A DNA stretch of 40,460 nucleotides from Dimargaris cristalligena (Eukaryota), in NCBI GenBank assembly GCA_003614675.1, contig ML002338.1, positions 1 to 40,460 of the forward strand. Direction: 5' to 3'. Shown piece by piece: positions 12,860-32,998 of the stretch. The translations under genes were made by a program, and so were the position numbers. The notes beneath the pieces were generated by a model. It saw only the letters and a program-made list of their open reading frames with translations. It was not told where the DNA came from and did not search any database. Within the stretch, counting starts at the first letter, position 1. The number at the start of each line of letters is the position of its first letter.

Positions 12860-13616
12860 CATTCCGAACCCTCCGAGGTATACCAGCAGATGGACGGAAA
12901 ATAGCAGAGAGAATAGGTACACATAGGGGAAAAAACCCGGACCCTACAGCTCAACATATTTCAATGGGCCCCAGCCTTTGAGATGGATGTTAAAAAGCCA
13001 GGTCAATGGCCCAGTTCAACGGTTGCAAGTGGAGTAACAGATAGGTAGGTGACTTATGGTACTATGTAGGTGCCCCATGATCATCCCCTCTTTTCGTTTG
13101 CCATCTAGCCAATGTACTGCCTTTACAATGAAGCAATGCCCACCGTACATGGTTCCATGGAAAGATGGACCCTGATTATAATCCACCCTCATCATCAGAC
13201 AATGCACGACCAATGATGGAGTCCAATACTCATACTGCCATTTTCAAGCATGTCTTGGGCTATCCTGCACAGCTGCTGGAAAGCTCAAATATTTCCTTGG
13301 CGTGACTTTGTTGCTTTTGATTTGAAGCCAGCAACCATGGTATTAATCCATACATCCAATACCAAGGTCTGCAAACCTGCCTAAAGAAAATGGACAGGGT
13401 CTACAGCCTAAGGTTGGGGGTGCAATTGAACAGCCAAATGGACTGCACATTGTTTTTCACATTGAATATATAAATGTCCCTCTTACTTCATGGCTATTGA
13501 GTGTTTCCATATTATTTTTTATTACTGCCTTTTATTATGGGCTTGCTATTTTCCCAATTCTTTTACTCAATTTGTTGCCCCCAATTGGCCACCTTGTCTA
13601 CTGTCTTTTTGGATAT
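12860..13616 (+). repeat. Decayed duplicate of the upstream region of the gene at 17423 (homologous to about 16600-17360)
   Basis: Colinear matches, e.g. GGGGGTGCAATTGAACAGCCAAATG vs GGGGGTGCAATTGAACGGCCAAATG, ACATCCAATA in both, and CCAATTGGCC..CTGTCTTTTTGGATA in both. Left boundary is approximate. Confidence 0.8.
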
Positions 13617-14197
13617 TGTTGCCTGGGTTAACCACTCTTAGTCCATCAAGAGTGCCAAGGATAGGCTTCTAATGGTAGGTGGGGCTTAGGCTCAGCCAAG
13701 TGGGCTACTAGTGTTAGGATGGGAGTGTAGTACTAACTAATAAAGGACAAATGTAGGTAAATGTAAGGGACATGCAGTAGGCACACTTATTAGTCAGTAC
13801 AGGGGGGTGAGCATATATAGAGTTTATTGAGGTAAACAGGGGAATATGAATAAGCTAAGGTATGGAACCAGTCCCAGTGGGGCCTGGTTATATATACACA
13901 GGGGCAGCTCTAGTGGAAGGTCCTAAGGGAATACTACTATGGCTAAGGTGTGGATAAGTAATGAATCCAACTGGATGGCTTCACATCGGGAAAACTCTTA
14001 TGGGAACTGGAAGAGTCTTGGATCAGCAAGCTGAGTATTTGGAGTGCAAAGTATTGGGGTTGAATGAGTGGGGTTACATAATAAAGGATGACCCCATAGT
14101 ACTGGGGGTAACTATGGGAGGGTCAATATGGTACTATAAGGCCTAATAAGGATGGTAATCATTAGGTCTGGATTAAGTTGGATTAGGAGGGCCAACA
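13617..14197. mobile_element. Solo LTR of an LTR retrotransposon (581 bp), copy 1
   Basis: Termini TGTTG...CAACA with a perfect 5-bp TSD GATAT (13612-13616 and 14198-14202). Removing it restores colinearity with the upstream region of the 17423 gene. Homologous to 14456-15041 in inverted orientation. Confidence 0.88.
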
Positions 14198-14262
14198 GAT
14201 ATCATACAATTCTTAAAAGACCAACCTTCTAAAGGAAAGTTTACCATCTCCCACCCATAGTA

Positions 14263-14455
14263 ATGCATGCCTGTAACATTGCCCTCTTGGTCCTTACCGC
14301 TTCATCCTTTGGTATTTTACCACTGACTTCCAAGTATCAGTATTCCACAGGTGGCTAACTCCCCAGCCCCAACCCATTCAGCAACAGGTATACTGTAGAT
14401 AAATCTGATGACTGGCCATCTACCAATAGTCAGGATTATACAAGTGATAGCATAC
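14263..14455 (+). pseudogene. Pseudogene (5' fragment) paralogous to the secreted-protein gene at 17423
   Basis: Translates MHACNIALLVLTASSFGILPLTSKYQYSTGG*LPSPNPFSNRYTVDKSDDWPSTNSQDYTSD, against MRACNIALLALAASSCGALALTSQQQYSIGDQLLSPNPFSDKYDVDKYSDWSSANSQYYSSD. In-frame TAA at 14356 where the paralog has CAA. Interrupted by LTR copy 2. Confidence 0.9.
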
Positions 14456-15041
14456 TGTCAGCCCTTCTAATCCACCTTAATCCAGACACCATACTACCTA
14501 CCCTTATTAGGCCTTATAGTACCATATTAACCTTCCCATAGTCACCCCCGGCACTATGGGATCACCATATATCATATAACCCTTCCTCTTCCGGACTCCA
14601 GCTCTTCATACTAATTACTCAGCATGCTGATCTGAAGACTCTTCCAGTTACCATAAGAGTCTTCCAGATACTAGCAGCCATCTGGTTGGCCTATTTTTAC
14701 TATATACCTTAGTTACTCATAGTCTTCCCTTGGGACCTCCCTATAGAGTTATCCCCACATATATATAACCAGGCCCCCTTAGGACTGGTTCAATTCCTTA
14801 GCTTATTCTTACCCCCCTAGTTTACTCTAATATACTCTATATACACGCACCCCCTTATACTGACCCATAAGTGTGCCCACTACACATCCCTTGTATAACC
14901 AATTGCCTAAGCCTTTATTAGTTAGTACCATGCCCCATACCTGATGCTAGTAGCCTGCTTGGCCAAGTATAAGCCCTGCCTACCATTAGAAGCCTATCCT
15001 TGGGACTCTTGATGGACTAAGAGTGGTAAACCCAGGTGACA
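14456..15041. mobile_element. Solo LTR, copy 2 (586 bp), inverted relative to copy 1
   Basis: Termini TGTCA...TGACA with TSD CATAC/TATAC (14451-14455 and 15042-15046, one C/T difference). Its reverse complement aligns end to end with 13617-14197 (e.g. ACCACTCTTAGTCCATCAAGAGT and ATATGGTACTATAAGGCCTAATAAGG). Confidence 0.85.
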
Positions 15042-17422
15042 TATACCCACCTCATAATGTAACCTAGCTGACCGAGTAGAGAACAAATAACTATAAGAAA
15101 CAACTAAGAGTCCCAAGTTAGGCAGGCAGATAAAAAGGTGGTTATATTGAGCACAAAAATGTAATAATGTAAATAATATTTTGTTTAACCTCATTACAAT
15201 AGTTGGCCATTTGGGCCATATAGTTTTTTCCTCTGAGGTGAGTGGCTATTATTGAGCTGTTGGGAGGAGGTTGTCCTTTGCTAACAGGAGGGGGAGGGGA
15301 TGGCCAACACCTTTGTCCAACAAATCTCCTTCACTTGGGCTAGGGGTACTGTGGGGGAGTGATATTGGCCTCTTGCCTATGATGGATAGTGGTCTGTCTT
15401 GGCTGCATAATATTGACTCTAGTTGTTAATGGCTTAACCCAGGCTATCAGTGTATATAGCCAATCTACCTGTCCCACCAGAAAATCCGGCCTAATAGTGC
15501 AACTGTGAGTTAAAACCACCCTGAACCTGGGATAAAAATAAATATAACACATACTAATTCGGATATGGTTTTTGTCAATATATATTTCTTTTATAACGAT
15601 CTATCTGTATTTGCCTACTCGACAGTCTTAGCAACACTTACCCTCCTTAGCCTAAGTGCAGCAATAGGACTAGGGTATATCCTTGCCACTCCCCCATATT
15701 AGATCTTATTGTACCAGAACCCCTTTTCTATGAATACACCTGTCGCCTCAATAACCTACTACTTAACCTTAACACCACCTATTATTATTCCGTCACTATA
15801 TTTCGCAGTTGACCCGGAGTCTCCTCTGACTCCCCCATAGTCTTACGGATACCAATGGGCACTAACTGATGCCAATATTCACTATCTATAGAACGCTCTT
15901 CTAGTATTGTCTTCACATAAATACCCCACCAAGTTGCAAGCGGTTTTTCAATGAAATAATGGGCAACTTAAACTGACATTTCAAATTTTAAGCATATGTA
16001 TGTTTCCTGAAAGCCCCATAACCCATTGAAATCGGCTTGGCAACAAATGTGTATAATAAGAGTTATAAAGATAACCCAAGAATTAACAACCTACGAGAGG
16101 GTGGTTAAGTGCGGCCCATCGCCTGTTACGAGTCAATAAACAGGCGACAGTCTCAAGCTGGGAGCAATACTACTATTTACAAGCACTGCTTCGAAGACGA
16201 GACAAACGTATAATATGAGAAAAGCCCGCGTTCCCTACCATAGACTTTTCCAAAGAAATCCATGCTGGGGTCCTTTTCCGCATATAACCACAGACCAAAG
16301 TGGGTCAACGGTTATCCGGATATATAATTGAGCAATTAATGAAGCTCAACCTGGCTTGAATCATACAGAATATTGGTGTAGGTCGTAAAAAAGAAACTGC
16401 CGTCGGAGAAGATATTTATTTTACCCTCGCCCCCTTTTATGAAACACGAGTCCAATAATCGACAGAATTACCCTGTAAAACTCCACAATAATGGACCCGC
16501 TTGCTATTCGGCACCGGATAACGGGCCTATTAGAATTCCCAATGGAAGCCACCGGACAGAAAAAACCCTTCGCCTGCGCTTTCCTTGAGCACAAAGGGTG
16601 ACCCGGGCCTTCCGGGATATACCGGCGGATCGATTGCAAGGGACCAGAGGGATAGGTACACTGAGGAAACTTATGCCGCTCTCCCCACCAGATTAACATA
16701 CTGCAATGGGCTTATATTATTGAAATGTATATTACAAGGTCGAACCCCCCGGCCCAGCTCGATGGGTGTGATTAGAGTAAAAGAAGGCCGTATGGCTTCT
16801 GTAACTACGTAGGTGCTCTTATGACAATTACCCCTTTGGTTTTTCATCTAATCAATGGACCACGTTAACGACCAATCGGCAGCATTCGCATGTAGCACCG
16901 TAGACCGTTGAAAAAGGGTAATGACACACCCTTGTCTTGGGGGACTTGCCGATATCCATACTAGAGTCCCTTACTCGCTAAACCAATTTAAAACATGCCT
17001 TGGACTGTCACCGCCATACCGCCAGAAAACCCGAACATTCTCTTTGTGTAACTTCCAGCTCTTTTATCGGTCATCAGCTGTTGTGGAACTAATCCGGACA
17101 TCCAATAATAAGGTCCGAAAACCCGCCTAAAGAAAAAAGCAAGGGTTTATATCTTACGTTTGGGGGGTGCAATTGAACGGCCAAATGGGCTATGCTTCGT
17201 TCGTCTCACTGTATATATAAACGCCCATCTTTCTCCCAGACTGTTGAGAGATATAGTATGTTTTTTTATTACTGTCTTTTATTGTGGGCTTGCAATTTCC
17301 CCAACTCTCTTATTCAATTCGCTGACCCAATTGGCCCCCTTGTCTGCTGTCTTTTTGGATAGTGTACTATTCTCGAAAGACCAACCTCCTAAAGGCAAAT
17401 TCGCTGTTTCCCGCCCAAAGTT

Positions 17423-18457
17423 ATGCGTGCCTGTAACATTGCTCTCTTGGCCCTTGCCGCTTCATCCTGCGGTGCTTTGGCGCTGACTTCCCAGCAACAG
17501 TATTCCATAGGAGACCAACTCCTTAGCCCCAACCCATTTAGCGACAAATATGACGTCGATAAGTACAGCGACTGGTCATCTGCCAATAGTCAGTATTATT
17601 CAAGTGACGACGAACAATATGGCGAATTCAATTCCAACAAGTCCAATTATGGGAAAACTATAGCTTCAACGAACCCAAGCGTTGCCACGTGGCCCTACAG
17701 TGAACCCCCCAAGACCAAACCGCTTGGTACCGAATCACGGCGTAATAGCGAACCCTCTTCCACTATAGCCCAAACAGACAAAAATACAGGACAAGAGGAC
17801 AACTTCAAAGCCACCAATCCTCACATTTCTCCGCTTAACCAACCACCGTCGCCGCCACTGACCGCCTATAACCCTAGCTCGGCCCTTCAAGTCGTTCGAC
17901 AAACACCCAAGTATCTGGCCGAACAAACTCGCCCGAATTCCCCGTCGGCGGCTTACGTTTACGGCGCCGCTACCATTTCGAGGGAAACTATGCCCTTGGC
18001 GGCCCAATGGTGTGACGAGACCATGGAATTGGTCGTGGCCAAGCGGGACGCTTCCGAATCCAGCTCAAAATTCCGAAAATGGTTTTCGCCAAAAGGTGTT
18101 GTCAAGTCGGCCCGGTTCGCCATAAACTACGCCGGTTTGCTTTTTGGTAAGGACGCCACCGTGGTGAATGCCCAATCCCGCTTGAAAAATATCTTCAAGG
18201 CCTATAGCGCAAATGTCTCAAGTCCCTACCTCATCGGACCGGAAAAAGAAATGGATACTCGCGGATCTATGCACTTAAAATTCGACTGGGGCGAGAACGG
18301 GTATTCGGCTAAATTGATCCCGGTCGAACCCGACGACTACGTCCATGTGGGCAGAAAAACTTATAATGCCCTGGAAGACTCAATGATTGAATTTTTGGAT
18401 GACCCCTTGGACAAAACCATGTACGAGTTTCTGAGAACCTGCAATACAGATATCTAG
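17423..18457 (+). CDS. Secreted protein, array member A (344 aa): signal peptide, S/T/P-rich region with NPFSD, Cys-bracketed C-terminal domain
   Basis: Hydrophobic leader MRACNIALLALAASSCGALA. C-terminal domain WCDETM...RLKNIFKAY...DKTMYEFLRTCN matches members B-D. TATATAA lies about 200 nt upstream. Confidence 0.85.
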   Translation: MRACNIALLALAASSCGALALTSQQQYSIGDQLLSPNPFSDKYDVDKYSDWSSANSQYYSSDDEQYGEFNSNKSNYGKTIASTNPSVATWPYSEPPKTKPLGTESRRNSEPSSTIAQTDKNTGQEDNFKATNPHISPLNQPPSPPLTAYNPSSALQVVRQTPKYLAEQTRPNSPSAAYVYGAATISRETMPLAAQWCDETMELVVAKRDASESSSKFRKWFSPKGVVKSARFAINYAGLLFGKDATVVNAQSRLKNIFKAYSANVSSPYLIGPEKEMDTRGSMHLKFDWGENGYSAKLIPVEPDDYVHVGRKTYNALEDSMIEFLDDPLDKTMYEFLRTCNTDI

Positions 18458-20328
18458 ACTGGTTCATAGCCAATTTGTTTAAATAACATCGCAACTTCGA
18501 AATCCCGTACAATTCCTATCCAAAAATATTAATACTAGCACAAACTAGCAGTCGTTTTATTTAATATAGTGTATATAAAATATGTCCCCATTTTATTTTC
18601 AATAAATACTGGAGTCTTCACGCATAGTATTCTCATCGGCAATAACTGGCCTCGCGCAAGCTATCGGCGTTTACACCAAGCTTACCCATCGCCAAGCTAA
18701 TTAAAAATACGGTCTATAGGTTTTTCCAAAACTTAGGTGAAAAGACAATGGCGGAATACGATCAATTGGAGCAGCCCAAATGTGCACAAAATAACATGAA
18801 GTAGGGAGAAGAGGTCAATAGCTAAGCTCGAACTGATATGGGTGAGGCCCAGTCAGGCCGTCTAGTGGAAAATGGGGTTGATTGGGCAGGTATTACAGAT
18901 TAAAAATATATATGCCGCCTATTATTATATTTATATATTGTTCATTATACTATACAGCCGCGTTAAATCTCACCTACATATAATAGAAGGAGCCCCCCAC
19001 CCTCCCCCACCCCCCGCTTATATTTGACACCCAATCAACATTTCTATTATATTTTCAACAAAACCCTCCAAAGACTATTGACCTTTCGAGCACAGTGCCC
19101 CCCTAACCTCCTAAACAGCAAGAGCACTTGGCGACTAATTGCTTCGTTTAGGCAATGCTAGTCACTGCGAAAGTCTAGCAGCCTAACGAATGCTTCGCGT
19201 ATCCCCATCAGATCTACCCTGACTATCTACGAACCCATTATTTGACAATTTCCTGTTGTCGATACGGGCGCGCAGGGAGGAGGTTAGGAGGCGGCCTTCT
19301 AGATGCTACGAGTTTATTCGTGTAAATAGTATTTTAAGTGTTACGTTTTCCTTTAAATTATATAATCCCGCCTTACTCGAAGACAGCCCTTACGTAATTA
19401 TAAGGCGGGCCCTATTAGTTTGAACTGTAATGCAGTAGTATGAGTGATAAGGCTGTGGAAAGGCACGGCCCATGGGTCAACCAAGGTGACCGTACAGTAC
19501 AGGTCAACAATACCCTTGCCCCATGGAAGCAAGGGCAACATGGAACAGTCAAATTATTCATATTTCGCCGCTTTTAGTTGACTAGGTGGGACTTACCAAT
19601 AACCGAAGGTCCCTAGATAAAAATAGCACCTTTTTTTTTCTTCCCCTATCAATTCTTAACGTCTGTTCAAGCGAAGTCCCCGCTGCGAGCGTACCTCCTT
19701 CACAGCGAAGGTACCCTACCATATCTCCCTTTCCCCCTATTTACTATTGGAGTGGTGCACCTTGTATTACGCCGCTTCTAAAGGCTCGAATAATTTGGCC
19801 ACTAATTAAACCTATAGCGTCTCATATTTTTTTTCGGACAATGAGATAATGAAGGACCTATCAGGTTTTGGGAACGTCAGTCCTATTGTAGACAGACCTT
19901 TTGAGTTACTATAGCCGTACCTTTCAAAAGGTCGAGCTGTGGGGCCGACATTTGGGAATACAGCAGCGGTTGGAAATAGGCTGACTAGGTATATATGTGT
20001 ATATATAGAGAAGTGAGTATAGAGAGTCCGATTATGCGGTTTTTGTCAGGTCATATAATCATCTTCCTCGAGAAGTCCTTTTCTTTAGCGACTTCCCAAT
20101 TTCCGGCGGCAATTATCCATCGTATATAGTTTCAAGTGCCACGCCCACTATTCTTTCTACAGCACTAATATTGCTCATAAACGGGTTACCTTATCCCAAC
20201 AGACCGTCCATTTTAGTTATTTTGACCTGTAATTGACTGTTGGTGCTGGCCACATAAAGTCGCCCACGTTGACTACGTCGCATCTCTCGGTATCTTAGTA
20301 ATTCCTTATTTTTATATATTATCTGGCC

Positions 20329-21393
20329 ATGAATAGTGCTATTGTTTTGGTTTCCCTATTCTTATCCTCCGCCACTGGGATGAACAGGTACCCTTTCCCC
20401 ATCCCCCAAATGCACCAAGTAGAGACACCATGGCCTCCATTTCCAATTCCGTCACCCGTTCCACCACCCCTTCCTCCTCGGCCCGATGATTATCAGCCGA
20501 GCACACTGTCCCTTCACGGGAAGCCCGACAAGTCATATATTTACGAGAATACTAACCAGTCGTCTATTTATGGAAAGCCCAACGAGCCGTCTATATATGA
20601 GAAGCCCAACGAGCCGTCTGTATATGAGAAGCCCAACGAGCCGTCAATTTATGAGCTGCCTGACCAGCAGTCAATCTATGATAAACCCAATACGCCCTCC
20701 ATATCGGACAGCTTGAACCCCTCGGCAATGGGTGCGCCTGCATTACCGAGTAGGACCAATACCGGGTTTAGTCTGGGGGCATCCAATTCGGCCGTTTCCC
20801 TAAATGTAAACACCCAAATCGACAACAACAGCGACGGCTCCGGCCACAGTTCATACCAGGATAGCCCAGTTTCCCCCGAGTCCGGGATGCTCCAGAGGGT
20901 CTGCGAAGACATGATGGGGTCTATTCAATACCTGACCTTTACTAATGAGGAGTCCATAAGGTCGAGACTCCGCGATTCGTTGACGGGCCAGGCCCACATG
21001 CTGGCGGCCTATGCGGCCCACCTCCACACACGGATTAGCCAAAGTAAGGAGCTTGGCGAGGTCTACCCGCGGGCCCGCCAGATTATGGGGGCCTACGTAC
21101 AACACCGGTCTGACCCCAGCATCATCCCATCGATGCACAGTGTGGATCTGCATAAATATAAGTACGTAATTCTATCGCTCGATAAGCGTACGAATGATAT
21201 TGTCTTGAAATCCACCACCAAAGACAGTTTTTTTCCGGTCCAGGACACAATGCATAATTGTATGAATGAGCCTATGCTTAAGTTTCGGTATGGAAATGCG
21301 AATGACCGTACCATGTATAAATTCCTAAGGACCTGCAACCCTAATTTAGGCCCTATGCGGGATCCCAAATGGCCGTTGGGAAAACTGCCCTAG
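20329..21393 (+). CDS. Secreted protein, array member B (354 aa): signal peptide, PPPLPPRP, six 9-aa Tyr repeats, Cys-bracketed domain
   Basis: Leader MNSAIVLVSLFLSSATG. Domain VCEDMM...RARQIMGAY...YKYV...MLKFRY...DRTMYKFLRTCN. Confidence 0.88.
   Translation: MNSAIVLVSLFLSSATGMNRYPFPIPQMHQVETPWPPFPIPSPVPPPLPPRPDDYQPSTLSLHGKPDKSYIYENTNQSSIYGKPNEPSIYEKPNEPSVYEKPNEPSIYELPDQQSIYDKPNTPSISDSLNPSAMGAPALPSRTNTGFSLGASNSAVSLNVNTQIDNNSDGSGHSSYQDSPVSPESGMLQRVCEDMMGSIQYLTFTNEESIRSRLRDSLTGQAHMLAAYAAHLHTRISQSKELGEVYPRARQIMGAYVQHRSDPSIIPSMHSVDLHKYKYVILSLDKRTNDIVLKSTTKDSFFPVQDTMHNCMNEPMLKFRYGNANDRTMYKFLRTCNPNLGPMRDPKWPLGKLP
20521..20691 (+). repeat. 27-bp coding tandem repeat, consensus KPNEPSIYE, about 6 units
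   Basis: AAGCCCAACGAGCCGTCT(A/G)TATATGAG-like units starting at 20521, 20548, 20575, 20602, 20629 and 20656. Confidence 0.92.
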
Positions 21394-23158
21394 GCTTTTT
21401 GTTGTATCAACCTAAATGTTGTTTTATTTATTTCGGCTAATTCGAATTTTTGTATAACCCTTGAATGGCTTATTGTCAATTTTGATTCTCTCGCAATTTA
21501 CACGGGCATTTATATTTTTTAACAACATTGGAGATAGAGGCTGAAGAAACGGACAGCCCAGCATCTCTTACAAAAAAGTATACTCTAATAAAAATACGGC
21601 CCTCAAAAGCCACGAGTGAATCATGTGATTATCATGTTTTACAACATTGGGGAAGGGGGTCAATAGATAAAAACCTACCTTGATACGGGTGGGTTCCACC
21701 AATTAGGGTGTTTAATTGCCAAAACAGTTGACTAGGTAGGTATTACGGACTTTAAATAGATATAACACCTCTAAGCAGATTTATATAATTTTGGTAAAAC
21801 TATACAGCCGCGCTTAATTTTACCTACATTTAATAGCGGACGCCCCCCCCGTTTATACTTGACACCCAATCGACCCTACCATTATATTTACCAAAACCAT
21901 CCAAAGACTATTGACCTTTCAAGCCGAATGCCTCCCCTAACCATCTAAATAGCTAGAGCGTTTGGCGACTAATTGCTCTACTTAGCAATGCTAGTCACTG
22001 CGGAAGCCTGGTAGCCTAACCAACGCTTCGCGCATTCTCATCAGGCTTAACATAGCTATCGACTAACTCATTCTTCGACAGTTTCCTGGTGTCGATATGG
22101 ACACACTGGGAGGAGACCATCTTCTATTTGGCACGAGTTTAATCGTTTAAATAGTGTATTAAATATTATATGTTCCTTAAAATTATCAAACTCCGTCCTA
22201 CTCGAAGGCAAGCTATCCGTAATAATAATGTGGGCCCTATTAGTTTGGACTGTAATACAATAGTATGAGTGATAAGGCTAAAGGGAGGGAACACAGCCAG
22301 TGGGCCAACCAAGGTGGACCGTACAGTACAGGGCAACGCAACTCTTGACCCATGGACGCTAGGGCAGCATTGAATACTCAATCTACTCATCCTTTCCATC
22401 TTTTTTCCCGGCCAGGTGGGGCTTGCCAATATCCGAAGGGTTGTCGGTAGAAAGAGACACCCCTGTTATCTAGCCCTACACATCTTTCCACCAGGTTAAT
22501 TGAAGTCCCCACTGCGAGAGTACCTCCTTCACAGCGAAGGTACCCTACCATATCTCCCTATCCCCATACTTACTATTGGGGCGCTGAGCCTTGTATTACA
22601 CCTTCTCGAAGGGCTCGATCTATTTGACCACTAATTAGACCAATAATATCGCTGGCTAGTTTTGGACAATGTGATAATGAAGGGCTTATCAGGTATTGGG
22701 AACGTCAGTCCAATTGTAGATAGACCTTTTGAGTTACCATAGCCGTAGCTTTCAAAATGTCCGACAGCTTGGCCGATAATTATGGTTAAAGCAGTGAGTA
22801 AATTTTGGCCGGCTAGGTATATATGTGAATATATATATGTAGGCGCGGGTGTGGGGAGTCCGAAAGTATGTATTTTGCCAAGCCCTACAATCGACTTTAT
22901 CGGGAGACCCTTTTCTTCACCGACTTCCCAATTTCCGACGGCAATTATTCATCGTATATAGCTTCAAGTGACACGTTCATTCTATTTTCTACATACCTGA
23001 TATTACTGATAAACGGGTTATTTTTTCTCTATAGCCCGTCCTATTTAGTTATTTTAGCGTATGGAATACACACCTGGTACTGGTCGCATGAACTCGCTCA
23101 ATTAAGCTACGCCGTTCTTTAATCTTAGTGATTACTAACGTTAATACATTATTCGACT

Positions 23159-24157
23159 ATGTGTATTGCCATTATTTTGGTTTCGTTATTATTACCTTCC
23201 GTCATTGGAATGTACGGGCACCCTTTCCCCAACAACCAAAGGTACTCAGTAGAGCCACTAGGGCCCCCATTTCCTATTTCAACGCATTTTCCACAACCCC
23301 TTCCTCCTCGGTCCAATGTTTATCAACCCAGCGAACCGTCTCTTCACGGGAAGCCCGACGGGGCATCTATTTATGAAAAGCCTAACGAGCCGTATAGTTA
23401 TGAGAATCCTAACGAGGCATATATTTATCAGAAGCCCAACGCGCCGTCTATTTATGGGCAACCTGACCTGGAGTCGGTCTATGATAAACCCAACACACCC
23501 ACCACCGCATCGGGAACATATTACCCATTGGCAATGGGCGCTGCAACGGTACCAAGTGTGCCGGATGCCAGGTTTAGTCTGGGGTCATCCAATTCGGCTA
23601 CTCCCCCAAATCCCAACACTCAAGCCGCCAATGACTTGTACCATAGTTCGGGCCTGGCTAATGCGGCGTCCACTGAGTCCGTGATGCTCCGAGGGGTCTG
23701 TGAAGACATAATGGAGGGTAATCAATACAGGTCCTTGACCAAGGGGAAGTCCATGGGGTCGAAACTACGCAATTCGCTAACGGGACCGGTCCACATGGTG
23801 GCGGCCTATGCGACCCACTTATACACCCGGATTCGCCATCGAACCAAGCCTGGCGAGGTCAACCGGAGGGTCCGCCAGATTATGGAGGCCTACATGCAAC
23901 ACCGGCCTGACCCCAGTATCACCCCGTCAATGCATAAGGTGGATTTACGTAAATATAAGTATGTAATTATAGTGCACAATATACAAACGCGGCGTATCAG
24001 CCTGAAACCCACCACCAAACGCAGCTTTTTGTGGGTAAACAAAAAAGCGACTAGTGATGTGGCGAGGTCTATGCTTAAATTTCGGTATGGGAGCGCACAT
24101 GACCGCGCCATGTACGGACTCCTAAAGGCCTGCAACCCCGATTTAGATCCCTGGTAG
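23159..24157 (+). CDS. Secreted protein, array member C (332 aa): signal peptide, PLPPR, five Tyr repeats, highly basic Cys-bracketed domain
   Basis: Leader MCIAIILVSLLLPSVIG. Closest paralog of B, with 80/145 identities in the domain by manual count. Ends DRAMYGLLKACNPDLDPW. Confidence 0.88.
   Translation: MCIAIILVSLLLPSVIGMYGHPFPNNQRYSVEPLGPPFPISTHFPQPLPPRSNVYQPSEPSLHGKPDGASIYEKPNEPYSYENPNEAYIYQKPNAPSIYGQPDLESVYDKPNTPTTASGTYYPLAMGAATVPSVPDARFSLGSSNSATPPNPNTQAANDLYHSSGLANAASTESVMLRGVCEDIMEGNQYRSLTKGKSMGSKLRNSLTGPVHMVAAYATHLYTRIRHRTKPGEVNRRVRQIMEAYMQHRPDPSITPSMHKVDLRKYKYVIIVHNIQTRRISLKPTTKRSFLWVNKKATSDVARSMLKFRYGSAHDRAMYGLLKACNPDLDPW
23351..23494 (+). repeat. 27-bp coding tandem repeat, about 5 degenerate units
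   Basis: KPDGASIYE-KPNEPYSYE-NPNEAYIYQ-KPNAPSIYG-QPDLESVYD-KPN. Confidence 0.88.
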
Positions 24158-26013
24158 GATAACAAGCGACCATGGAGTAAATTTCCCTCGACGTTTTTGT
24201 TGTACTAGCTTAAAGACTTTTTTTTTGTGGCAAAGTCATACTTTTGTATAACCCTTGAATAACCTATTAATATTTTTCTCTCTCTCAAAATCTGGCTATG
24301 GGCTTTAATATTTGGACGGCATTAGACATGGAGGTTGAAGAAACTGGCAGCCCTGTAACTATTTAAAAAATATATACTCTAATAAAACCAGGCCAAACTG
24401 CCTAAAACTAAACCACTAAATCTAGGGGAATGAATACGAGTCTACTAATTGTATCTTATTATATTATTATAGCTTACTACATCCTTGGTGTGGTTGTAGG
24501 TGGCGAAAAGGTTGGGGGGGTGTCGGTTGGGTAGTTTTATTAACAATAATTGCCTAGATGCATTTACCAAAGGTGTGAGTTTTTGTTTTTTTCTGGACTG
24601 CCAGGCTGCAATGTTCACCAATTATCTATCTATATAAGTACATGTTCACTTGGCAGTCACTAATATGAGCGGGCCCATTGACCCCTTTAGTTTAAACTGC
24701 AACAGAATTTTGCAGGTATTGGACTTGAAACACCCTTAACATGGTACTGGGTCAGACCCCATTCCGACGAACAAATGCTCTCTGGGGATGAGTTAATAGT
24801 AGCCAATCTGAGCTTCACTCCCTCTTTGACGCCCATCGACCGAAATGATGAATTTCTTCCAAACGGATTCAATTTTGTTTTTTTAAAAAAAGAATAACAG
24901 CCATAGGGGGTTGAATGGGTCGTCGATAAGAGGTATGCTGCGTTATTTTATTATAATAAAATAAACTTAATCTACTGATGCTCTTCAAATAGAGGTCGAT
25001 AATATTTGCCGAAAGGCAACCCCAACGTGAGGGGGTGGGTGGGGCGTCAACGGTTGTGGGAGCGAAGGGGACTGATACGGAGCAGTTGAAGGGGAGGAAG
25101 AGGAGGGGGAAGGGGAAGGAAGGGGGTGTCATTCACATTGAAGGAGTACAAGAAGCGCCAGACAGCCATAGGAAGGGAAGAATGTGATACCGGCCGACCA
25201 TTCTAATTATACGCCCCGTCTTCCTCCTTTTTGGTTGGTCTAGCTTTTGCAGCCGGTATCGAACGGGAGATTCAGTGAATAAAAGGTGGCAGGCAGATTG
25301 TCTGCTATTCGTAGACCTCCCCGTCTCTAGGCTAGCCCACTGGCTGAGACTGCAAAAGCCGAAGCGTCGCTATGGAGGCCGGTCGTTCCTTTTGTGCTTA
25401 TATTCGAAGCACTGGGGGAGTTCTGTACGACGCTGTCGAAGGTTCAAAGCCATCGCACCACCAATGATCATATTTTAGTGGGGCTCCTAGAGACCACAGC
25501 TTTGCTTCAGTGGCTATGGGAATAATCGCACTTGGCCAAGTGATGAGCGGACAGGCATAGTTCTGTCCCTTTACGAAAAAAACCTCTTCGAGACCCCCCC
25601 CCCGTTTCAGCTTCCTATACTTATTTACCTTTCAAATCAATCGAATAGGTTTGCCTGATACGGTACGTCTGGCGGGTGCGACGGTACACCATTGAAGAAA
25701 GCCCAGATTTGGGAACAGAGCATAGTCGAAATTGTTGCTGACCTAGAATTAGATGTATATATATATATATATACGGCCATACCTAACCCCAATGATAAAA
25801 ACCAACGTAATAGGTATAATTTACCATTTCCTTCACTATTTGACGTTTTTTTTAAGACCGCTCTTATATTGGTCCAGTTATTTAACGCGGGCGTATCGCC
25901 TATCCCCCAGAACCCGCCACTCATTGATTTAACCTGTTGGCTGCATACCCTGTTCAACTTTGTAAACGTTTCTCTGTTTTCTCTACAACCGTGCATGCTT
26001 ATATTTCTTGACC

Positions 26014-27723
26014 ATGCGCGCGGTAATTGTATTAAGTTTAAGTTGGCTTTCCTTCGTCCATGGAACTGGCGAAGAATTTCGAGGCCAACCTCCTTTTTGG
26101 TTTGACAATTCCGGACCACCTCCTCTTCCTCCTCGAATATCCAGTGTCGAAAGTAGTCAACCGATTGGATACAACCGCCCCAGCCAGGAACAGCAGCACA
26201 ACGGTGAAACTACATCTTACCATGGGAACTCTTATAGCTCCGGACCACCACAACTTCCCCCCCGGCCACTGAGTGCCCAGTATAACCAACAGGCTAATGA
26301 CAACACTGCCTACCAGGGAAAGCAGCACAACGGCCAGACTGCACCAAACCAAGGGCATTTTTATAACTCCGGGCCACCACAAGTTCCGCCTCAAACACAG
26401 AGTACCCATTATAATCAACAGACTAATTATAAAGGTGCCTACCAGGAACAGCAAAACTACGGTCAGACTATGCCTCTACAAGGGCAAAATAACCTTGGTC
26501 CGCAAACTCTTCCCCCTCAAGCGTCGGGTGCCCAGTATAACCAACTGGTTGATATCAGCAACGCCTACAAGGGACAACAAAACTACGGCCATACTGTATC
26601 CAACCAAGGGTATTATTCCAACTTCAGACCACCTCAAGCTCCCCCTCAAGCATCGGGCGCCCAGTATAACCAACGGGTTGATTATAACGGCGCCTACCAG
26701 GTCCAGCAGCAAAATCCCCAAAATCCGCCAAGCCAAGGCCATAATAACTTCGGGCCACAATATTTTCCCTCTCAAATGCCGAGTGTCCCAGCTAACCAAA
26801 TACCCCCTAAAACCGCCCACCAGGCCCAGCAGCAAAATATTCAAATTCCGCCAAACCAAGGCCATAATACCCTCGGGCCACAATATTTTCCCTCTCAAAT
26901 GCCGAGTGTCCCAGCTAATCAAATACCTCCTAAAACCGCCTACCATGTCCAGCAGCAAAATCCCCAAAATCCGCCAAATCAAGGAAATAATTCGCCTAAG
27001 CCCCAACCTCTTCCCCATCAAGCACCGAGCGTCCCAGCTAATCAAATGCCTTCTAAAAACGCCTACCAGGGACAGCAGAATAATGGCCAAATTACATCAG
27101 ACCAAGTGTATTTACCGCGCCCCCAGGAACCGAATGTACCAACTGTTGGTTCTACAACGGCCACCAGCGCCGCCACCGGTCCTTCCCAATTGAAAATCAC
27201 TCCCGCGAGTGACTCGGGGTACTCAATTAATTATGATCCCAACCAGTTGCCCAAGGGCATCTGCGAAATTATCATGAATCTGGACCAGTACCTGCCTGCT
27301 ACGACAGCGGATCCGACCCAAACGTCTAGGAAAAACCCCTGGTGGAATACCGGGCTCACGAAATGGAAGGGTATCCAATATACCCTAAGTGATCTCAAAC
27401 CCTGGGACCCCAGCGATGATAAGATCAGGGAGCGGGCCCGAGCCATTATGGCGGCGTTCGTCAACGGGGAAGACCACCCCAACCTCACGCGGGCTTCGAT
27501 AGTGTTGTCTTGGGATCAATACAAATATGTGAAGTTCTTACAGGATCCCCAAGCGCGACGCATCCGGCTACAGACCCCGGCCGCCGAAGAATTGTTTGGC
27601 ATTAAAAAGGGAGACCAAGCCGGGGCTGTCACCCTGCTCAAACTTAGGTACAATAACCCGGTGGATGAGAAAATGTACGAACTATTCAGATACTGCAATT
27701 CGGGATTGGAACCTTGGAAATAG
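26014..27723 (+). CDS. Secreted protein, array member D (569 aa): signal peptide, two PxLPPR motifs, Q/N/P/Y-rich repeats, Cys-bracketed domain
   Basis: ATG at 26014 in ACCATG context; the ORF track starts at an upstream TTG. Leader MRAVIVLSLSWLSFVHG. Domain ICEIIM...RARAIMAAF...YKYV...LLKLRY...DEKMYELFRYCN. Confidence 0.88.
   Translation: MRAVIVLSLSWLSFVHGTGEEFRGQPPFWFDNSGPPPLPPRISSVESSQPIGYNRPSQEQQHNGETTSYHGNSYSSGPPQLPPRPLSAQYNQQANDNTAYQGKQHNGQTAPNQGHFYNSGPPQVPPQTQSTHYNQQTNYKGAYQEQQNYGQTMPLQGQNNLGPQTLPPQASGAQYNQLVDISNAYKGQQNYGHTVSNQGYYSNFRPPQAPPQASGAQYNQRVDYNGAYQVQQQNPQNPPSQGHNNFGPQYFPSQMPSVPANQIPPKTAHQAQQQNIQIPPNQGHNTLGPQYFPSQMPSVPANQIPPKTAYHVQQQNPQNPPNQGNNSPKPQPLPHQAPSVPANQMPSKNAYQGQQNNGQITSDQVYLPRPQEPNVPTVGSTTATSAATGPSQLKITPASDSGYSINYDPNQLPKGICEIIMNLDQYLPATTADPTQTSRKNPWWNTGLTKWKGIQYTLSDLKPWDPSDDKIRERARAIMAAFVNGEDHPNLTRASIVLSWDQYKYVKFLQDPQARRIRLQTPAAEELFGIKKGDQAGAVTLLKLRYNNPVDEKMYELFRYCNSGLEPWK
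26191..27090 (+). repeat. About seven coding tandem repeats of 123-129 bp (41-43 aa)
   Basis: CCAGCAGCAAAAT recurs at 26703, 26826 and 26949 (period 123). CAGCACAACGG recurs at 26194 and 26323 (period 129). GPQYFPSQMPSVPANQIPPKTA is repeated exactly twice. Confidence 0.9.
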
Positions 27724-29091: not shown

Positions 29092-31230
29092 CTAACGACG
29101 GGCAATCTGGCCGGATTTGTCCAGAGCCATCAAACTACCAATGAAGGTGAGAATCATCTTGGGCTTCACTTCAACAATATCCTCGGGCAACAGGAAGATG
29201 GTGGCGCCGAGCTTACGGGCCACGGAAATGGCGTACTTGGCATTCAACTTGGCATCCTCTTCGCTTACCCCGCGGGTCAGCATGCTATAATCCACCACTC
29301 CGGGCTGGAGGCCATTGAGGACGTCGGCGAGGAAAAGGCCGCTGCGGAGCGAAGGGTCTTTGAAGCTGGTAATCGATCCGGAGGACTGGTTGGAGGCCGC
29401 GTTACGGCGCACGCATTCGTTGGCCCATTTCACCATGTCCTGGTCCGTAACCTCGCGACCGTTTTTGCTAAGCGACTTGAGGGTCTGCACCACGTGGGCC
29501 CGCATAAGCTGCCAGACCAGGGCCAGAATCAAAGTAGGCACCCCATCGGTAATATCGGCACCCTGGATACCCACCAGTGAGAAGCGCTGGTCCTTGCCGA
29601 GATCAACTACGTAGTTGGTGTTCTCCACCTGCTTAAACCGACTGGTGCTCGCGTTCTTGTTGACCCGGCGCCAGTTAACAGTACCCGGATGCACCTTATC
29701 GAAGGCCTGCAGCAGGGGCAGCCCGTCCTTGAGGTCCTCAAACAGGTTGTTGACGAAGGGGTCTACCCCCAAACTGTTGAGCCACAGGGCGAAGGCCCGG
29801 GCCTCGCGCTCGTGGGTGTTGTTGAAGAGCAACTCATCCAGCTCGGCCTTTTCGGCCCCTTCGGCCAGGGGTTCTAGACCGGGGTGGGTGTTGAACAGGT
29901 GGGCCACAAAGGCCAGGTTGAGCTTAGGGTTTCCGTTCACCAGGGTCTTGGGAGACAGGTAGCGGCGGCAACCGATCTTGTCCGCGTTTTGCAGGACCTG
30001 TTCAGCGCGGCGGTAGAGGTCAGACTCCTGCAGGGGCGCCCGTGAACATTGGGAGGGCACCAGCTGGTTAAGCAGTACCGTGTAGTTTTCACCATCCTTG
30101 ACATCGGTGCTGAAGTTGCTGACCCGACGGTTCCAGTTGGCCGCCTTGAGATGGTAGTTGAACCAGCGCAGCAGAATGGCATCGGCGGGAAGCTTGAGGA
30201 ACTGCTCCAGGGTTTCGTCCTCCTCCAACAGGCGGTATAGCTCTGGGTGGAGTTTGATGTCAATCTTGGCCAGGAGCCCAATCTTGATAATCTGCCAAAT
30301 GAGGCCCAGGATCAGGTGTTCCCGTCCTTCGATCAGATCCTGGGACCCGATGTTGACGACGCTGCAGCCGATGGCCTTGGCGGAGTTGACCACCAGGTTG
30401 TTATTCTCAATGATTTGGAAGGGGCTGAGTTTCTTGCCGCGATTCAGCACCCGCTCGTCGATGGTCCCGGGGACGGCGTGGTTAATCAACTTGGAGAGCA
30501 GTAAACCATCCCGGCACTCGTCAAAGACCTGCATGGTGTTTTCGTCAATCGGCATGCGGGACCCAATGTCCTTATCGCCAGCCAGAGTCTGGTTGATATG
30601 GATGACAAATTCGGCTTTTTCATCCTCGTTCATAGAGTGCGCGGTGTTGGTGTTGGAGCCCATCACGGTGATTGTTTTCTTGTTGTGGAGGCCGGCAAAG
30701 GTGTTTTCGGCTTTGGCGACATTGGAGCGCAGGTTGGCGACAATCTATACGGTCGGCAAGCAGAGAAGGTGATCGGTGGGTAAAACGGGACGGGAATAAT
30801 AACCGGTGATGAATACACACATCCACACCATGGCAGTGTCAGAGGACAGAATTATCCGCAATAACTGATTCTAAAGGACTAAACAAGCGAGTAGTGGCTA
30901 CTACCACCAGTTGATACGAAATGATACGGGAGCGCTACACCATATTCAGGGTACGACTCCATGAAAGGGTTGGTTACTTACCTCAACAAACTCCTCAACC
31001 TCGACCCCACGGGCGGAATTAAGATTAATGTCCCGGATGGCGGTACGAATCTGATCGTAGTCCTTGTCCTTTTCCACCTTCTGACAGGCCTTGACCAGGT
31101 CGCGCTGGTCCAAGGCACCGTTCTGGTCCAGGTGGAAGGAGTTGAACTCCTGGACAAGAGCTTCAATGTCCCAAGGCTTCAACTTGGGGTACTTGCGGGA
31201 GATGCGCTGGATATCGGCTTGGGAACTCAT
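29092..31230 (-). CDS. SAC6: Fimbrin/plastin actin-bundling protein, 2 exons (31230-30982, 30744-29092), 633 aa
   Basis: N-terminal EF-hand-like headpiece plus four CH domains (DGLLLSKLINHAVPGTIDERVLN, LILGLIWQII, ILLRWFNYHL, ARKLGATIFLLPEDIVEV). Phase-0 intron 30981-30745 (GTAAGT...TAG) joins EEFVE|IVANL in frame. Confidence 0.96.
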
Positions 31231-32998
31231 GGCGAGAAATGGAGACGGTAAATTACAGGGCGGACACGGAGCGCAAAGGACGTCGACTTGGACGAGGGTG
31301 TGAATGGAAAGGACTGTGATACAAAGAAACGGGCAGGTGGGTGATTAATAATGAAATATAAATCAGGTCGTTGTTGGAGGGACGGAGGAAGGTTGAGCCA
31401 GATGAATAACAAGAGGGGGTTAGTAGTGTTATAGGGAGAAGGCAGAGGGAGGGAATTAGGCTTTCTCACGAATGCGTTGCGTAATGGGTTCCAGGCCAGT
31501 TGCTACTAAGGCAGTTGGGTAGTAGGTGTAGGGTCACCACCTCTTTCAGGAGTGGGGTTGAAACCCGGACCGGACACCAGGCGGCCAGAACTGAGCAACA
31601 CAGCCCTGGTGGGGCTGGGGGTTTCAGAATGGGCGGAAATTCCCTTCAGGACTCTTTTTCTTTGCATTAACGCAAAGAGTTCCGGCAGTGCTTTTAGGGA
31701 AGCACTAACTATGAACTGTGGGCACTGGTGGCGGAGCGATAGGAGAAATATCTGGTATAAAGCTGACCTACGGCAATAGTTTAAGGGCAGAGACTGCAGT
31801 TTTTTAAAGACCACTATTGGGGCACAAATGAACTGAACAAAACAAATGAGAAACAGGGAAAAGTTAAAGAAAGATAGGCGACGTTTTATAGTAGAAAGGT
31901 GTGGATATATGCGAACAATAGGATACAGCAGGAAGAGGGGGGGGGTTGGCCAATAAGTAGTGTAATATAGTTTTATAAGTAAGCAGTAGTAATAAGTAAT
32001 GGAATGGAATAATGGGTGGCCTGAAGTTCTAGGACAATCTATGAAAGATATATGCTGGTACAATGGGTATGCCGGCCGTCCCTTACACCTCAACCCCACC
32101 TACGTCAGCCAGCACAACCAGCCTACTGGATCAGCTGTCAGTGGATAAGAGAGGTTTGGTATATGCACAGGTCAGGCAAAATAGCCTGCGGCTGAAGAAG
32201 AATCGCAGAGCCAATAGGGAAAAACTGGTCAGGTAGGGCGATGAAAATGGCACTAGGGTCACCTGGGCCTGCTGTTTGCTTGGCCTATCGAAGATTCCAT
32301 TCTTACAGCCTGTATTAGTGGGGAGATAGTTAGTGCCAACCCTCTCCCCAACGCTGAAAGGTTCAACTGCCAAGCAAAATATCCGCTGCGTCTTGGCGTG
32401 GGGCATGGGAAGAGAGGGTATGGAATGGAATGGGACTTGGCACAGTTTAAGTAAGTTAAGTTGCTGGCTAAAGGTATAAAAACTACGAGTGGTCAAGGAA
32501 ATATATAATACAGGTCAGCTATTAACCCAAGGAATGCCTCAGTAAACTAATACCCCGCTGTATTCCATGCGAGCCAGCCAGATAGTAGTAATAGTACCCA
32601 AGGAGAAGAGGTCCAGTGGCCAATTAAACTGGTCGCATTAAATCGATTATGCGCTATATACAATTTTAAGAATAACAACCATTACCCTCTATTTAGAGAG
32701 GTTTATGGAATTTCACCTACACGTATTTAGTTGGCCTGAGGCCCTGAGCCAAGTGCCCCCCCCTCCTCCTAATATGTAGGCGTGCTAAATGGAGGACGGT
32801 AAGCTCATTTACCCATGAACCGGCTAACTATCCCCGCCCTGTCGCCTATTTGTGTGGTCTTGGGCTGTATATAGTTGGCCCATATTTTCTGCGGTTTTAC
32901 TATTCACACCTGGTGGTAGCGCTATCCTTAGAATCCACCCTAATTTTTCTCCCTTCCCGATCTCTTCCATTCCACCCCCTCCTCCGAACTAACAAACG

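Follow-up and report, generated by a model that had tools for sequence, protein, structure and literature searches.

The window analysed here, a 40,460-nucleotide stretch of Dimargaris cristalligena DNA, carries four intact open reading frames in the standard code, all on the plus strand, which we refer to as genes A to D. Gene A (17423-18457) encodes 344 amino acids, gene B (20329-21393) 354, gene C (23159-24157) 332 and gene D (26014-27723) 569, and all four share a layout of a signal-peptide-like N-terminus, a low-complexity middle rich in Pro, Ser, Asn, Gln and Tyr, and a C-terminal domain of ~160 amino acids. Gene C matches gene B in architecture, with 53% amino acid identity. GC3 in the genes is 0.50-0.60, compared with an intergenic GC of 0.42. 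A Pfam search of 122 further window ORFs of at least 75 amino acids identified a bZIP protein, a fimbrin (four CH domains and an EF-hand) and two RING-H2 proteins, and no transposase or reverse transcriptase. By blastn, the upstream regions of A, B/C and D displayed no similarity to one another, except for that of B with that of C.

A fifth copy is broken and flanked by two inverted repeats of ~580 bp. An earlier note, made from the sequence alone, had described four intact frames plus one pseudogene; the frames were confirmed, whereas the pseudogene proved to be a 5' fragment only, without the domain. The upstream (promoter/leader) remnant of this A-like copy lies at 13338-13619 on the plus strand and matches 17084-17365, in front of gene A, at 78% identity (repeat families D10, D16 and D18). 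At the point equivalent to 17365, the copy is broken by the left ~580-bp element (13617-14198), which pairs along its full length with the right, inverted element at 14455-15041 (inverted-repeat pairs I1-I3, 78-83% complementary). The pseudogene fragment itself (14205-14447, plus strand) comprises the A-like 5' leader and the first 62 codons, with 79% nucleotide identity to 17365-17607, an ATG at 14263 and an in-frame stop at 14356-14358; residues 1-62 of A aligned by tblastn to 14263-14448 with 66% identity. A-like similarity stops at the right element, and no A-like DNA was found in 12860-13337. Searches by tblastn, blastn and HMM recovered no trace of the domain from the pseudogene, and a six-frame search for such a trace or for a fifth domain copy returned nothing above 4.4 bits.

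Genes B and C lie in the first (18849-21698) and second (21699-24500) plus-strand units of a 2.83-kb head-to-tail segmental duplication, visible as direct-repeat families with a spacing of 2794-2850 and 71-83% identity, intergenic DNA included. The two genes are 74% identical in coding sequence (26% of nucleotides differ), which equals the 75% identity upstream and speaks for fast evolution. All four gap runs in the coding alignment are multiples of three (3, 3, 9 and 27), compared with 2 of 13 in the upstream DNA, and in simulations of 26% random substitutions the frame was still open in 1/20000 for B and 1/20000 for C. B and C are real, maintained genes under selection for open frames. Their dN of 0.28 and dS of 0.47 give a dN/dS of 0.61 overall (domain 0.67, linker 0.56), which is below 1 and therefore makes no case for positive selection; relaxed constraint fits equally well. 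The birth-and-death evolution proposed in the earlier note is borne out by this tandem duplication, by the broken 5' A-like fragment and by a 109-amino-acid fragment, P0005, located elsewhere.

The C-terminal domain is bracketed by two invariant cysteines: Cys197 (18011) and Cys340 (18440) in A, Cys192 (20902) and Cys336 (21334) in B, Cys181 (23699) and Cys325 (24131) in C, and Cys417 (27262) and Cys561 (27694) in D. They lie 143, 144, 144 and 144 residues apart, respectively, so that the previously reported spans of 144, 145, 145 and 145 hold on inclusive counting. The reported motifs C-[DE]-x2-M, R-x-[RK]-x-I-[MF]-x-A-[YF]-x6-P and D-x2-M-Y-x-[FL]-[LF]-[RK]-x-C-N were likewise present, as were YKYV and LK[FL]RY in B-D. 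An HMM built from B, C, D and the paralogue P0002, with A left out, scored A at 37.6 bits, compared with 4.5 bits for the best unrelated sequence among 1305 window ORFs; the homology of A is therefore more than chance. Paralogues at 17-26% identity keep 12-13 invariant residues together with the cysteine spacing, and the invariant set (C, M, R, I, A, P, L, D, M, Y, C and N) looks more like a structural core than like a group of catalytic residues.

AlphaFold models of the B domain (model 1: pLDDT 76, pTM 0.70, with blocks 61-160 averaging 80-93) and of the A domain (model 2: pLDDT 75, pTM 0.66), built on alignments of just 5 and 7 sequences, have the same predicted topology, namely a helix at 59-76, five strands within 96-139 and a helix from 142/143 to 155; this agreement is not independent, because the two alignments share members. 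Confidence in both models is low between the first cysteine and helix 59-76. Across B, C and P0002, beta5 is 100% identical, but the beta3-beta4 hairpin only 30% and segment 16-58 only 43%. As modelled, the domain is a conserved core with a variable surface, and the Cys-Cys pair would probably pin the domain ends together as a putative disulfide.

Signal peptides were judged by a hydropathy and cleavage-site heuristic and by eye. By this heuristic, each of the six full-length family members examined opens with a hydrophobic segment of 17-20 amino acids that closes on a small residue. In none of them was another strongly hydrophobic stretch seen, and their C-termini are polar, not hydrophobic. 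We infer from these features that the family proteins are secreted. Low-complexity repeat regions make up half or more of each of A-D, and the linkers contain 11-19% Pro, 18-24% Ser+Thr and, in each protein, 10-25 Tyr and 28-53 Ser+Thr residues. The middles had been called member-specific, and this did not stand, since the differences are clade-specific: B and C share the same 9-amino-acid Tyr/Pro repeats (20486-20728 in B, with a 27-nt period, and 23289-23531 in C, both plus strand), whereas A, whose middle is rich in Ser, Pro, Thr and Asn, has an acidic motif in common with P0006. Gene D carries eight Q/N/P-rich repeats of 41-43 amino acids (123-129 nt; about 26179-27113, plus strand; repeat family D4). 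The proposal of swappable linkers held insofar as linkers differ between clades, but a search with the B linker turned up no other carrier of it (the one match among 237 candidates was the window's own protein model).

Just past the signal peptide, B, C and D have a PPF-x6-PxPLPPR motif in common (plus strand, 20434-20481 in B and, in the form PPF-x6-PPPLPPR, 26089-26136 in D), of which C retains PLPPR without the first Pro. The class II SH3-ligand consensus is PxxPx[KR]. This pattern occurs only in B (positions 46 and 137) and D (36 and 79) and is absent from A, C, P0002 and P0006, and the family does not share a class II SH3 ligand. There are no consistently placed dibasic (Kex2-type) sites between repeats, and no PIR-like repeats are visible by eye in the family protein sequences.

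Searched at E<=0.001 against 1.84 billion representative proteins, prokaryotic ones included, the family profile returned eight matches, six belonging to the family and two judged spurious. Both family members with a named source come from D. cristalligena. P0002, with 226 amino acids, is the only member below 300 and consists of the domain behind a 45-amino-acid linker without repeats. Pfam gave no relevant match for the full proteins at E<=1 (only a sub-threshold GAPT hit on the repeats of B) or for seven domain sequences at E<=10 (one member against DUF6670 at E=0.16), and the profile found nothing significant among PDB sequences (best E-value 1). Foldseek searches of the PDB with models 1 and 2 gave no match at E<=0.001 among the 500 listed for each (best E 0.15 and 0.24, respectively; TM <=0.25), and neither did model 1 against BFVD among the 500 listed (best E 0.034, TM 0.19). 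Two ESM Atlas runs reached recognition values of 1429 and 1877, under the 2300 mark, with no accepted match; viral polymerase or gag clusters appearing there were set aside as noise. The statement that the domain belongs to no known family thus agrees with Pfam, PDB sequences and Foldseek. By these searches the family is lineage-restricted, with no relative of its domain detectable outside D. cristalligena, and it is a real family of modular, predicted secreted proteins with an unmatched domain.

Of the two spurious matches, P0008 (1766 amino acids, repetitive, E=1.3e-4) was dismissed from its sequence. The other, P0007, is a six-fold CAP-repeat protein whose profile E-value of 4.5e-8 arises because six near-identical repeats add up, so that a short local match is multiplied. 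In the last strand and C-terminal helix of the family domain (MY..L..CN), 32 columns resemble the strand-helix-Cys segment of P0007. However, hhalign assigned a probability of only 33% over those 32 columns, the family domain stops where a CAP domain would continue, and none of the seven members matched CAP (PF00188) in Pfam at E<=10. We regard the resemblance to CAP/PR-1/SCP proteins as chance.

The accessible text of PMC9866270 presents D. cristalligena as a haustorial mycoparasite and Dimargaritales as entering their hosts via an appressorium and haustorium, and the species is described as biotrophic and haustorial in the accessible parts of PMC9866270 and PMC6784888. The earlier attribution of the cluster to a parasitic or symbiotic fungus fits this well, the named relatives coming from this haustorial mycoparasite (PMC9866270, accessible text). 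The Dimargaris texts consulted make no mention of an effector or secreted family.

Our best guess, held tentatively, is that these proteins are candidates for an effector-like role at the host interface, and we consider the family reasonable candidates for host-interaction proteins. Under this reading, a tandemly duplicating family would be exported at the parasite-host interface, where its products may act as non-enzymatic binding proteins; both the binding role and the site of action are inferred. A cleavable signal peptide would be followed by an extended, repetitive, clade-specific low-complexity middle (rich in Pro, Tyr, Gln, Asn and Ser) and the ~160-amino-acid alpha+beta domain. The latter would serve as a compact scaffold, with a conserved core of helix 59-76, the last strand and the C-terminal helix, probably held by the Cys-Cys pair; segment 16-58 and the beta3-beta4 hairpin could provide a diversifying contact surface, and the linker may be a spacer presenting short motifs.

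Tandemly clustered CSEPs occur in rusts, smuts and powdery mildews. The Dimargaris family resembles the CSEP families of biotrophic fungi in its predicted signal peptides, lack of a recognisable domain and confinement to one lineage, in its tandem duplication with pseudogenes and elevated dN/dS, in its conserved structural core with variable surface segments, and in coming from a haustorial biotroph. With six family members and two spurious sequences making up all eight profile matches, no homologue turned up beyond the lineage, and neither Pfam nor PDB sequences revealed a known domain. It differs in that the Dimargaris host is another fungus rather than a plant, in that low-complexity repeats occupy at least half of each of A-D, and in that neither its sequence nor, in the Foldseek searches, its predicted structure resembles a described effector fold. 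Effectors of the classic type are small (<300 amino acids) and cysteine-rich, whereas A-D are larger (332-569 amino acids) and cysteine-poor (2-4 Cys), and only P0002 is small. Known effector and toxin folds include KP4/KP6, MAX and RNase-like folds; no killer-toxin-like or other known effector or toxin fold was matched by Foldseek in PDB or BFVD at E<=0.001 among the 500 matches listed for each. Repetitive secreted fungal proteins of the Ustilago Rep1/Rsp3 type also have a signal peptide followed by tandem short repeats whose number varies among paralogues. Here, by contrast, a conserved globular C-terminal domain defines the family, dibasic sites are not placed consistently between repeats, and there is no sequence similarity.

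The main rival, which we judge somewhat unlikely, is a structural role outside the cell, for example as an adhesive, as a matrix of the wall or spore coat, or as a glue of the appressorium. In that case, the Pro/Tyr/Gln-rich repeats would form an extended matrix, possibly Tyr-Tyr cross-linked or glycosylated, and the C-terminal domain would anchor or multimerise, perhaps via intermolecular cysteines. Plant proline-rich wall proteins and mussel foot proteins typically carry short Pro/Tyr/Lys-rich repeats, and silk-type self-assembling proteins combine a repeat region with a non-repetitive C-terminal domain containing a conserved Cys. The Pro, Tyr and Ser+Thr content of the A-D linkers and the regular repeats of B/C and D recall the former, and the overall layout recalls the latter; the Pro/Tyr repeats and Ser+Thr content are no less in keeping with a structural wall or adhesive protein than with an effector-like one. 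However, no hydrophobic C-terminus was seen that could act as a GPI signal, and related species usually share their structural wall proteins, whereas members of this family turned up in a single species. P0002 carries the domain with only its short repeat-free linker, and therefore the domain, not the repeat, is the conserved unit.

A secreted toxin or enzyme harming the host fungus in the manner of a killer toxin is highly improbable. A predicted secreted alpha+beta domain of ~160 amino acids in a parasite, in a tandem family suited to toxin diversification, would be in keeping with it, but the invariant residues contain no catalytic-type set of His, Ser, Glu or Cys, none of the three Foldseek searches yielded a toxin or enzyme fold at E<=0.001 among its 500 listed matches, and the biotrophic, haustorial lifestyle, as described in the accessible parts of PMC9866270 and PMC6784888, argues against host-killing toxins. 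That the genes are evolutionary debris, young functionless orphan ORFs open by chance or through annotation optimism, is the least credible reading: dN is close to the divergence of the non-coding DNA upstream (25% differences), one of the copies has already been disrupted, a fragment lies elsewhere and the public B and D models are truncated, but frames of 332-569 codons would very rarely survive such divergence by chance, the indels preserve the frame, dS exceeds dN, and distant paralogues share their invariant residues, cysteine spacing and a confidently predicted fold.

Returning to the effector-like reading, a far more specific version seems doubtful to us: that this would be the first family of effectors from a Zoopagomycota biotroph living on other fungi, built on a novel disulfide-pinned alpha+beta fold and passed from the haustorium into cells of the Mucorales host. 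The PPF-x6-PxPLPPR motif and Pro/Tyr repeats would then be an uptake signal, or mimics of host proline-rich (SH3/WW-type) ligands hijacking the actin/endocytic machinery, and the variable hairpin would confer target specificity. The searchable literature holds almost nothing on the molecules deployed against fungal hosts by haustorial mycoparasites among the early-diverging fungi, and a species-restricted, duplicating family with an unmatched predicted fold offers a concrete, clonable starting point; as wall or adhesive proteins, these would be of modest interest only. Among the database models, P0004 has the length of gene A, whereas P0001 is gene B minus its N-terminal part (221 amino acids) and P0003 a shortened gene D (417 amino acids). 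Because the N-terminus with the signal peptide is missing from these public models of B and D, secretome surveys built on them would have overlooked both proteins.

The array contains four intact open reading frames (ORFs) in the standard code, all on the same strand, as the earlier note had claimed, which is the forward one: gene A (17423-18457, 344 aa), gene B (20329-21393, 354 aa), gene C (23159-24157, 332 aa), and gene D (26014-27723, 569 aa). The last ~160 residues of the four proteins align, and the domain motifs listed previously were found, with 12 invariant columns among the four window domains (C, M, R, I, A, P, L, D, M, Y, C, and N). Offsets between the two cysteines of 143, 144, 144, and 144 in A, B, C, and D, respectively, agree with the inclusive spans of 144, 145, 145, and 145 counted before. 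An HMM of B, C, D, and P0002, a family member outside the window, scored A at 37.6 bits, against 4.5 bits for the best unrelated of 1305 window ORFs. Because this HMM was built without A and still recovers it, the homology of A, the most divergent member, to the others is not circular. The reverse HMM, built from A and P0006 (also outside the window), scored B, C, and D at 38.2, 32.1, and 18.9 bits, respectively.

Exhaustive profile searching of 1.84 billion representative proteins yielded eight matches at E<=0.001. Three of these are window proteins, namely A and shortened public models of B (221 aa) and D (417 aa); P0002 (226 aa) is also among the eight. P0006 is an A-like protein of 333 aa (E=1.2e-13), and P0005, likewise outside the window, is a 109-aa fragment without the terminal Cys. 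P0002 and P0006 are annotated as hypothetical proteins of Dimargaris cristalligena in two separate annotations. In the domain tree, A and P0006 group apart from B, C, P0002, P0005, and D with support of 97/96, and identity across the two clades is 17-22%. By our count, the family has at least seven loci in addition to a broken copy, spread over three or more contigs, and all of them lie, as far as these databases show, in one species. Two other library matches were not accepted as relatives: P0008, long and repetitive, was judged spurious, and P0007, a six-fold CAP-like repeat protein, was rejected with 31-32 columns matched and an hhalign probability of 33%. P0007 shares with the family a 32-column strand-helix-Cys motif (MY..L..CN), which was judged a chance similarity, although it is the sole outside similarity seen. 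This protein of 1859 aa, encoded outside the window, consists of six near-identical CAP/PR-1-like repeats and a Pro/Thr-rich stalk.

None of the searches linked the domain to a known family or fold. Pfam returned nothing relevant for the full proteins or the isolated domains, and the best match of the profile to PDB sequences had E=1. Foldseek searches against PDB with AlphaFold2 models of the B domain (model 1) and the A domain (model 2) gave best E values of 0.15 and 0.24, respectively, with TM <=0.25 among the matches listed; for model 1 against BFVD the best E was 0.034, with a TM of 0.19. In the ESM Atlas, recognition stayed under threshold and the matches were incoherent. The family is new, apparently with an unmatched predicted fold.

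The two models, for which the input alignments contained 5 and 7 sequences, reached a mean pLDDT of 76.2 and pTM of 0.70 (model 1) and a mean pLDDT of 74.8 and pTM of 0.66 (model 2). In both, N-terminal helices carrying the first Cys, of low to moderate confidence, are followed by a poorly predicted variable segment and then by a well-predicted core comprising a helix at domain residues 59-76, five beta-strands within 96-139, and a C-terminal helix (142/143-155) with the second Cys at its end; ten-residue blocks over 61-160 of model 1 average 80-93 in pLDDT. Since the models share alignment rows, their agreement is supportive rather than independent. Conserved positions cluster in the last strand, the C-terminal helix, and helix 59-76. 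Variability peaks in segment 16-58 and the beta3-beta4 hairpin, even within the close trio of B, C, and P0002 (identity of 43% in segment 16-58, 30% in the hairpin, and 100% in beta5). By inference, this pattern would reflect a conserved scaffold with a diversifying surface.

According to a hydropathy heuristic, all six full-length members examined (A-D, P0002, and P0006) have at the N-terminus a hydrophobic stretch of 17-20 residues, the last of them small, and none has a second strongly hydrophobic stretch or a hydrophobic C-terminus. The public model of B begins at internal Met134, omitting the part encoded at 20329-20727, and that of D at internal Met153, omitting 26014-26469; owing to these internal starts, both models lose the predicted signal peptide and the greater part of the linker. 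Upstream of the public starts, the full B and D ORFs are open, and B, C, and P0002 have conserved N-termini.

Dimargaritales parasitize Mucoromycota and some Ascomycota by means of an appressorium and haustorium (PMC9866270), and D. cristalligena is one biotrophic mycoparasite of a single-cell genome study, in which fast rRNA sequence evolution was described for Dimargaris (PMC6784888). Besides D. cristalligena RSA 1219, PMC9866270 names D. xerosporica, Dispira simplex, and Tieghemiomyces parasiticus among the Dimargaritales. These sources, as far as their accessible text goes, and the D. cristalligena paralogues P0002 and P0006 support the parasitic fungus proposed earlier. In the accessible portions of the literature, no description of the family was found under Dimargaris secreted proteins, effectors, mycoparasitism, or the locus-tag prefix; Dimargaris is unmentioned in the available main texts of PMC9391592 and PMC13188720, and the strings 'secret' and 'effector' do not occur in that of PMC6784888. 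The family resembles a familiar kind, the lineage-specific secreted protein cluster of a biotroph, and an effector role is plausible. We tentatively favor, at somewhat less than even confidence, the reading that the array proteins are exported non-enzymatic binding proteins with a candidate effector role. Once exported, they would act by binding at the parasite-host interface, with the C-terminal domain as a scaffold bearing a putative disulfide pin and variable contact loops.

The linkers bear on the main rival, a possible but more doubtful one, which gives the proteins a structural, adhesive, or matrix role: their Pro/Tyr repeats would form a layer that is extended and perhaps cross-linked, and the domain would serve as an anchor or multimerizer. 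Linkers of A-D contain 11-19% Pro, 10-25 Tyr, and 28-53 Ser+Thr each, that of D additionally 18% Gln and 11% Asn. The repeats of B and C are 9-aa Tyr/Pro units that recur every 27 nt (5.1 and 3.3 copies by TRF, with degenerate units up to about nine), and D has eight units of 41-43 aa each. In P0002, the domain is preceded by a 45-aa repeat-free linker, which argues that the domain is the conserved unit. Under the binding-protein reading, the linker would be a spacer displaying motifs. The middle region had been called member-specific; linkers do vary, but the variation follows clade rather than individual member. An acidic motif is common to A and P0006, and PPF-x6-PxPLPPR is common to B, C, and D, 9-19 residues past the signal peptide. 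Within the latter motif, B and D agree at 10/16 positions, a value reached in 2/300 shuffles of the whole D linker and 0/300 of its first 53 residues. Putative delivery of the proteins into host cells, with PPLPPR-type and Tyr/Pro motifs acting there as mimics of host proline-rich ligands, is unlikely; the strict SH3-type PxxPx[KR] pattern is limited to B and D, two of the six full-length members examined. A toxin or enzyme is very unlikely, and the invariant domain residues include no obvious catalytic set.

Least probable of all is that the ORFs are drifting and non-functional; we take them to be genuine genes whose constraint is weak or mixed. B and C lie in head-to-tail duplication units, each about 2.83 kb long (about 18849-21698 and about 21699-24500, respectively), which are 71-83% identical over their entire length, including intergenic DNA. 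The coding sequences (74% identity) are no better conserved than the upstream DNA (75%). Gap runs between the copies are divisible by three in 4/4 coding cases (3, 3, 9, and 27) versus 2/13 upstream, and after 26% random substitutions only 1/20000 simulated copies of B, and 1/20000 of C, was still open. These frame-preserving indels and the rarity of open simulated frames indicate that both reading frames are protected despite divergence. Nei-Gojobori estimates over 331 aligned codons gave dS 0.47, dN 0.28, and dN/dS 0.61 (signal peptide 0.54, linker 0.56, domain 0.67), values that do not demonstrate positive selection. GC3 in A-D (0.50-0.60) exceeds intergenic GC (0.42) and is below that of the nearby fimbrin gene (0.77).

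Together with the B/C tandem duplication, a broken A-like copy supports the birth-and-death family proposed earlier. Of the pseudogene described in the earlier note, only two forward-strand stretches were recovered: upstream DNA at 13338-13619, which shows 78% identity to the sequence preceding A, and the leader with the first 62 codons at 14205-14447 (79% identical; ATG at 14263), interrupted by an in-frame stop at 14356-14358, 31 codons after the ATG. Searches by tblastn, blastn, and six-frame HMM recovered nothing of the C-terminal domain, and no A-like DNA was detected from the start given in the earlier note, 12860, to 13337. A non-coding element of ~580 bp lies between the two pieces (13617-14198), and an inverted copy, 78-83% complementary to it, directly follows the gene fragment (14455-15041). 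Because the element splits the A-like pieces and its inverted copy abuts the fragment, we infer that the A-like copy was broken by insertion or rearrangement with a repeated element, not by point decay alone. The 243-bp gene fragment is thereby bracketed by inverted copies, which could represent a foldback or MITE-like element or an inverted duplication; the window holds no further copies, and no transposase-like ORF lies near the pair.

Neighboring genes are ordinary eukaryotic ones by Pfam. On the reverse strand, they include a bZIP protein (1993-3834) and a fimbrin/plastin with four CH domains in one long exon (29095-30744) and an EF-hand pair in an upstream exon (30949-31344), separated by an intron-sized gap; GC3 of this gene is far above that of the secreted-protein genes. 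No ORF of at least 75 aa has a Pfam match between about 4 and 17.4 kb (about 13 kb), which places the array in or at the edge of a stretch poor in recognizable genes. The region from about 4000 to 6000 is strongly purine-rich, with GC skew up to +0.27 and AT skew up to +0.30. Downstream on the forward strand, two membrane RING-H2 paralogues (36485-37270 and 38871-39686; Pfam zf-RING_2, E 4.7e-11 and 2.9e-13, respectively), each with a single hydrophobic segment and a C-terminal RING-H2 finger, form a second small tandem duplication on the contig, with 71% identity over 109 nt at a spacing of 2419.
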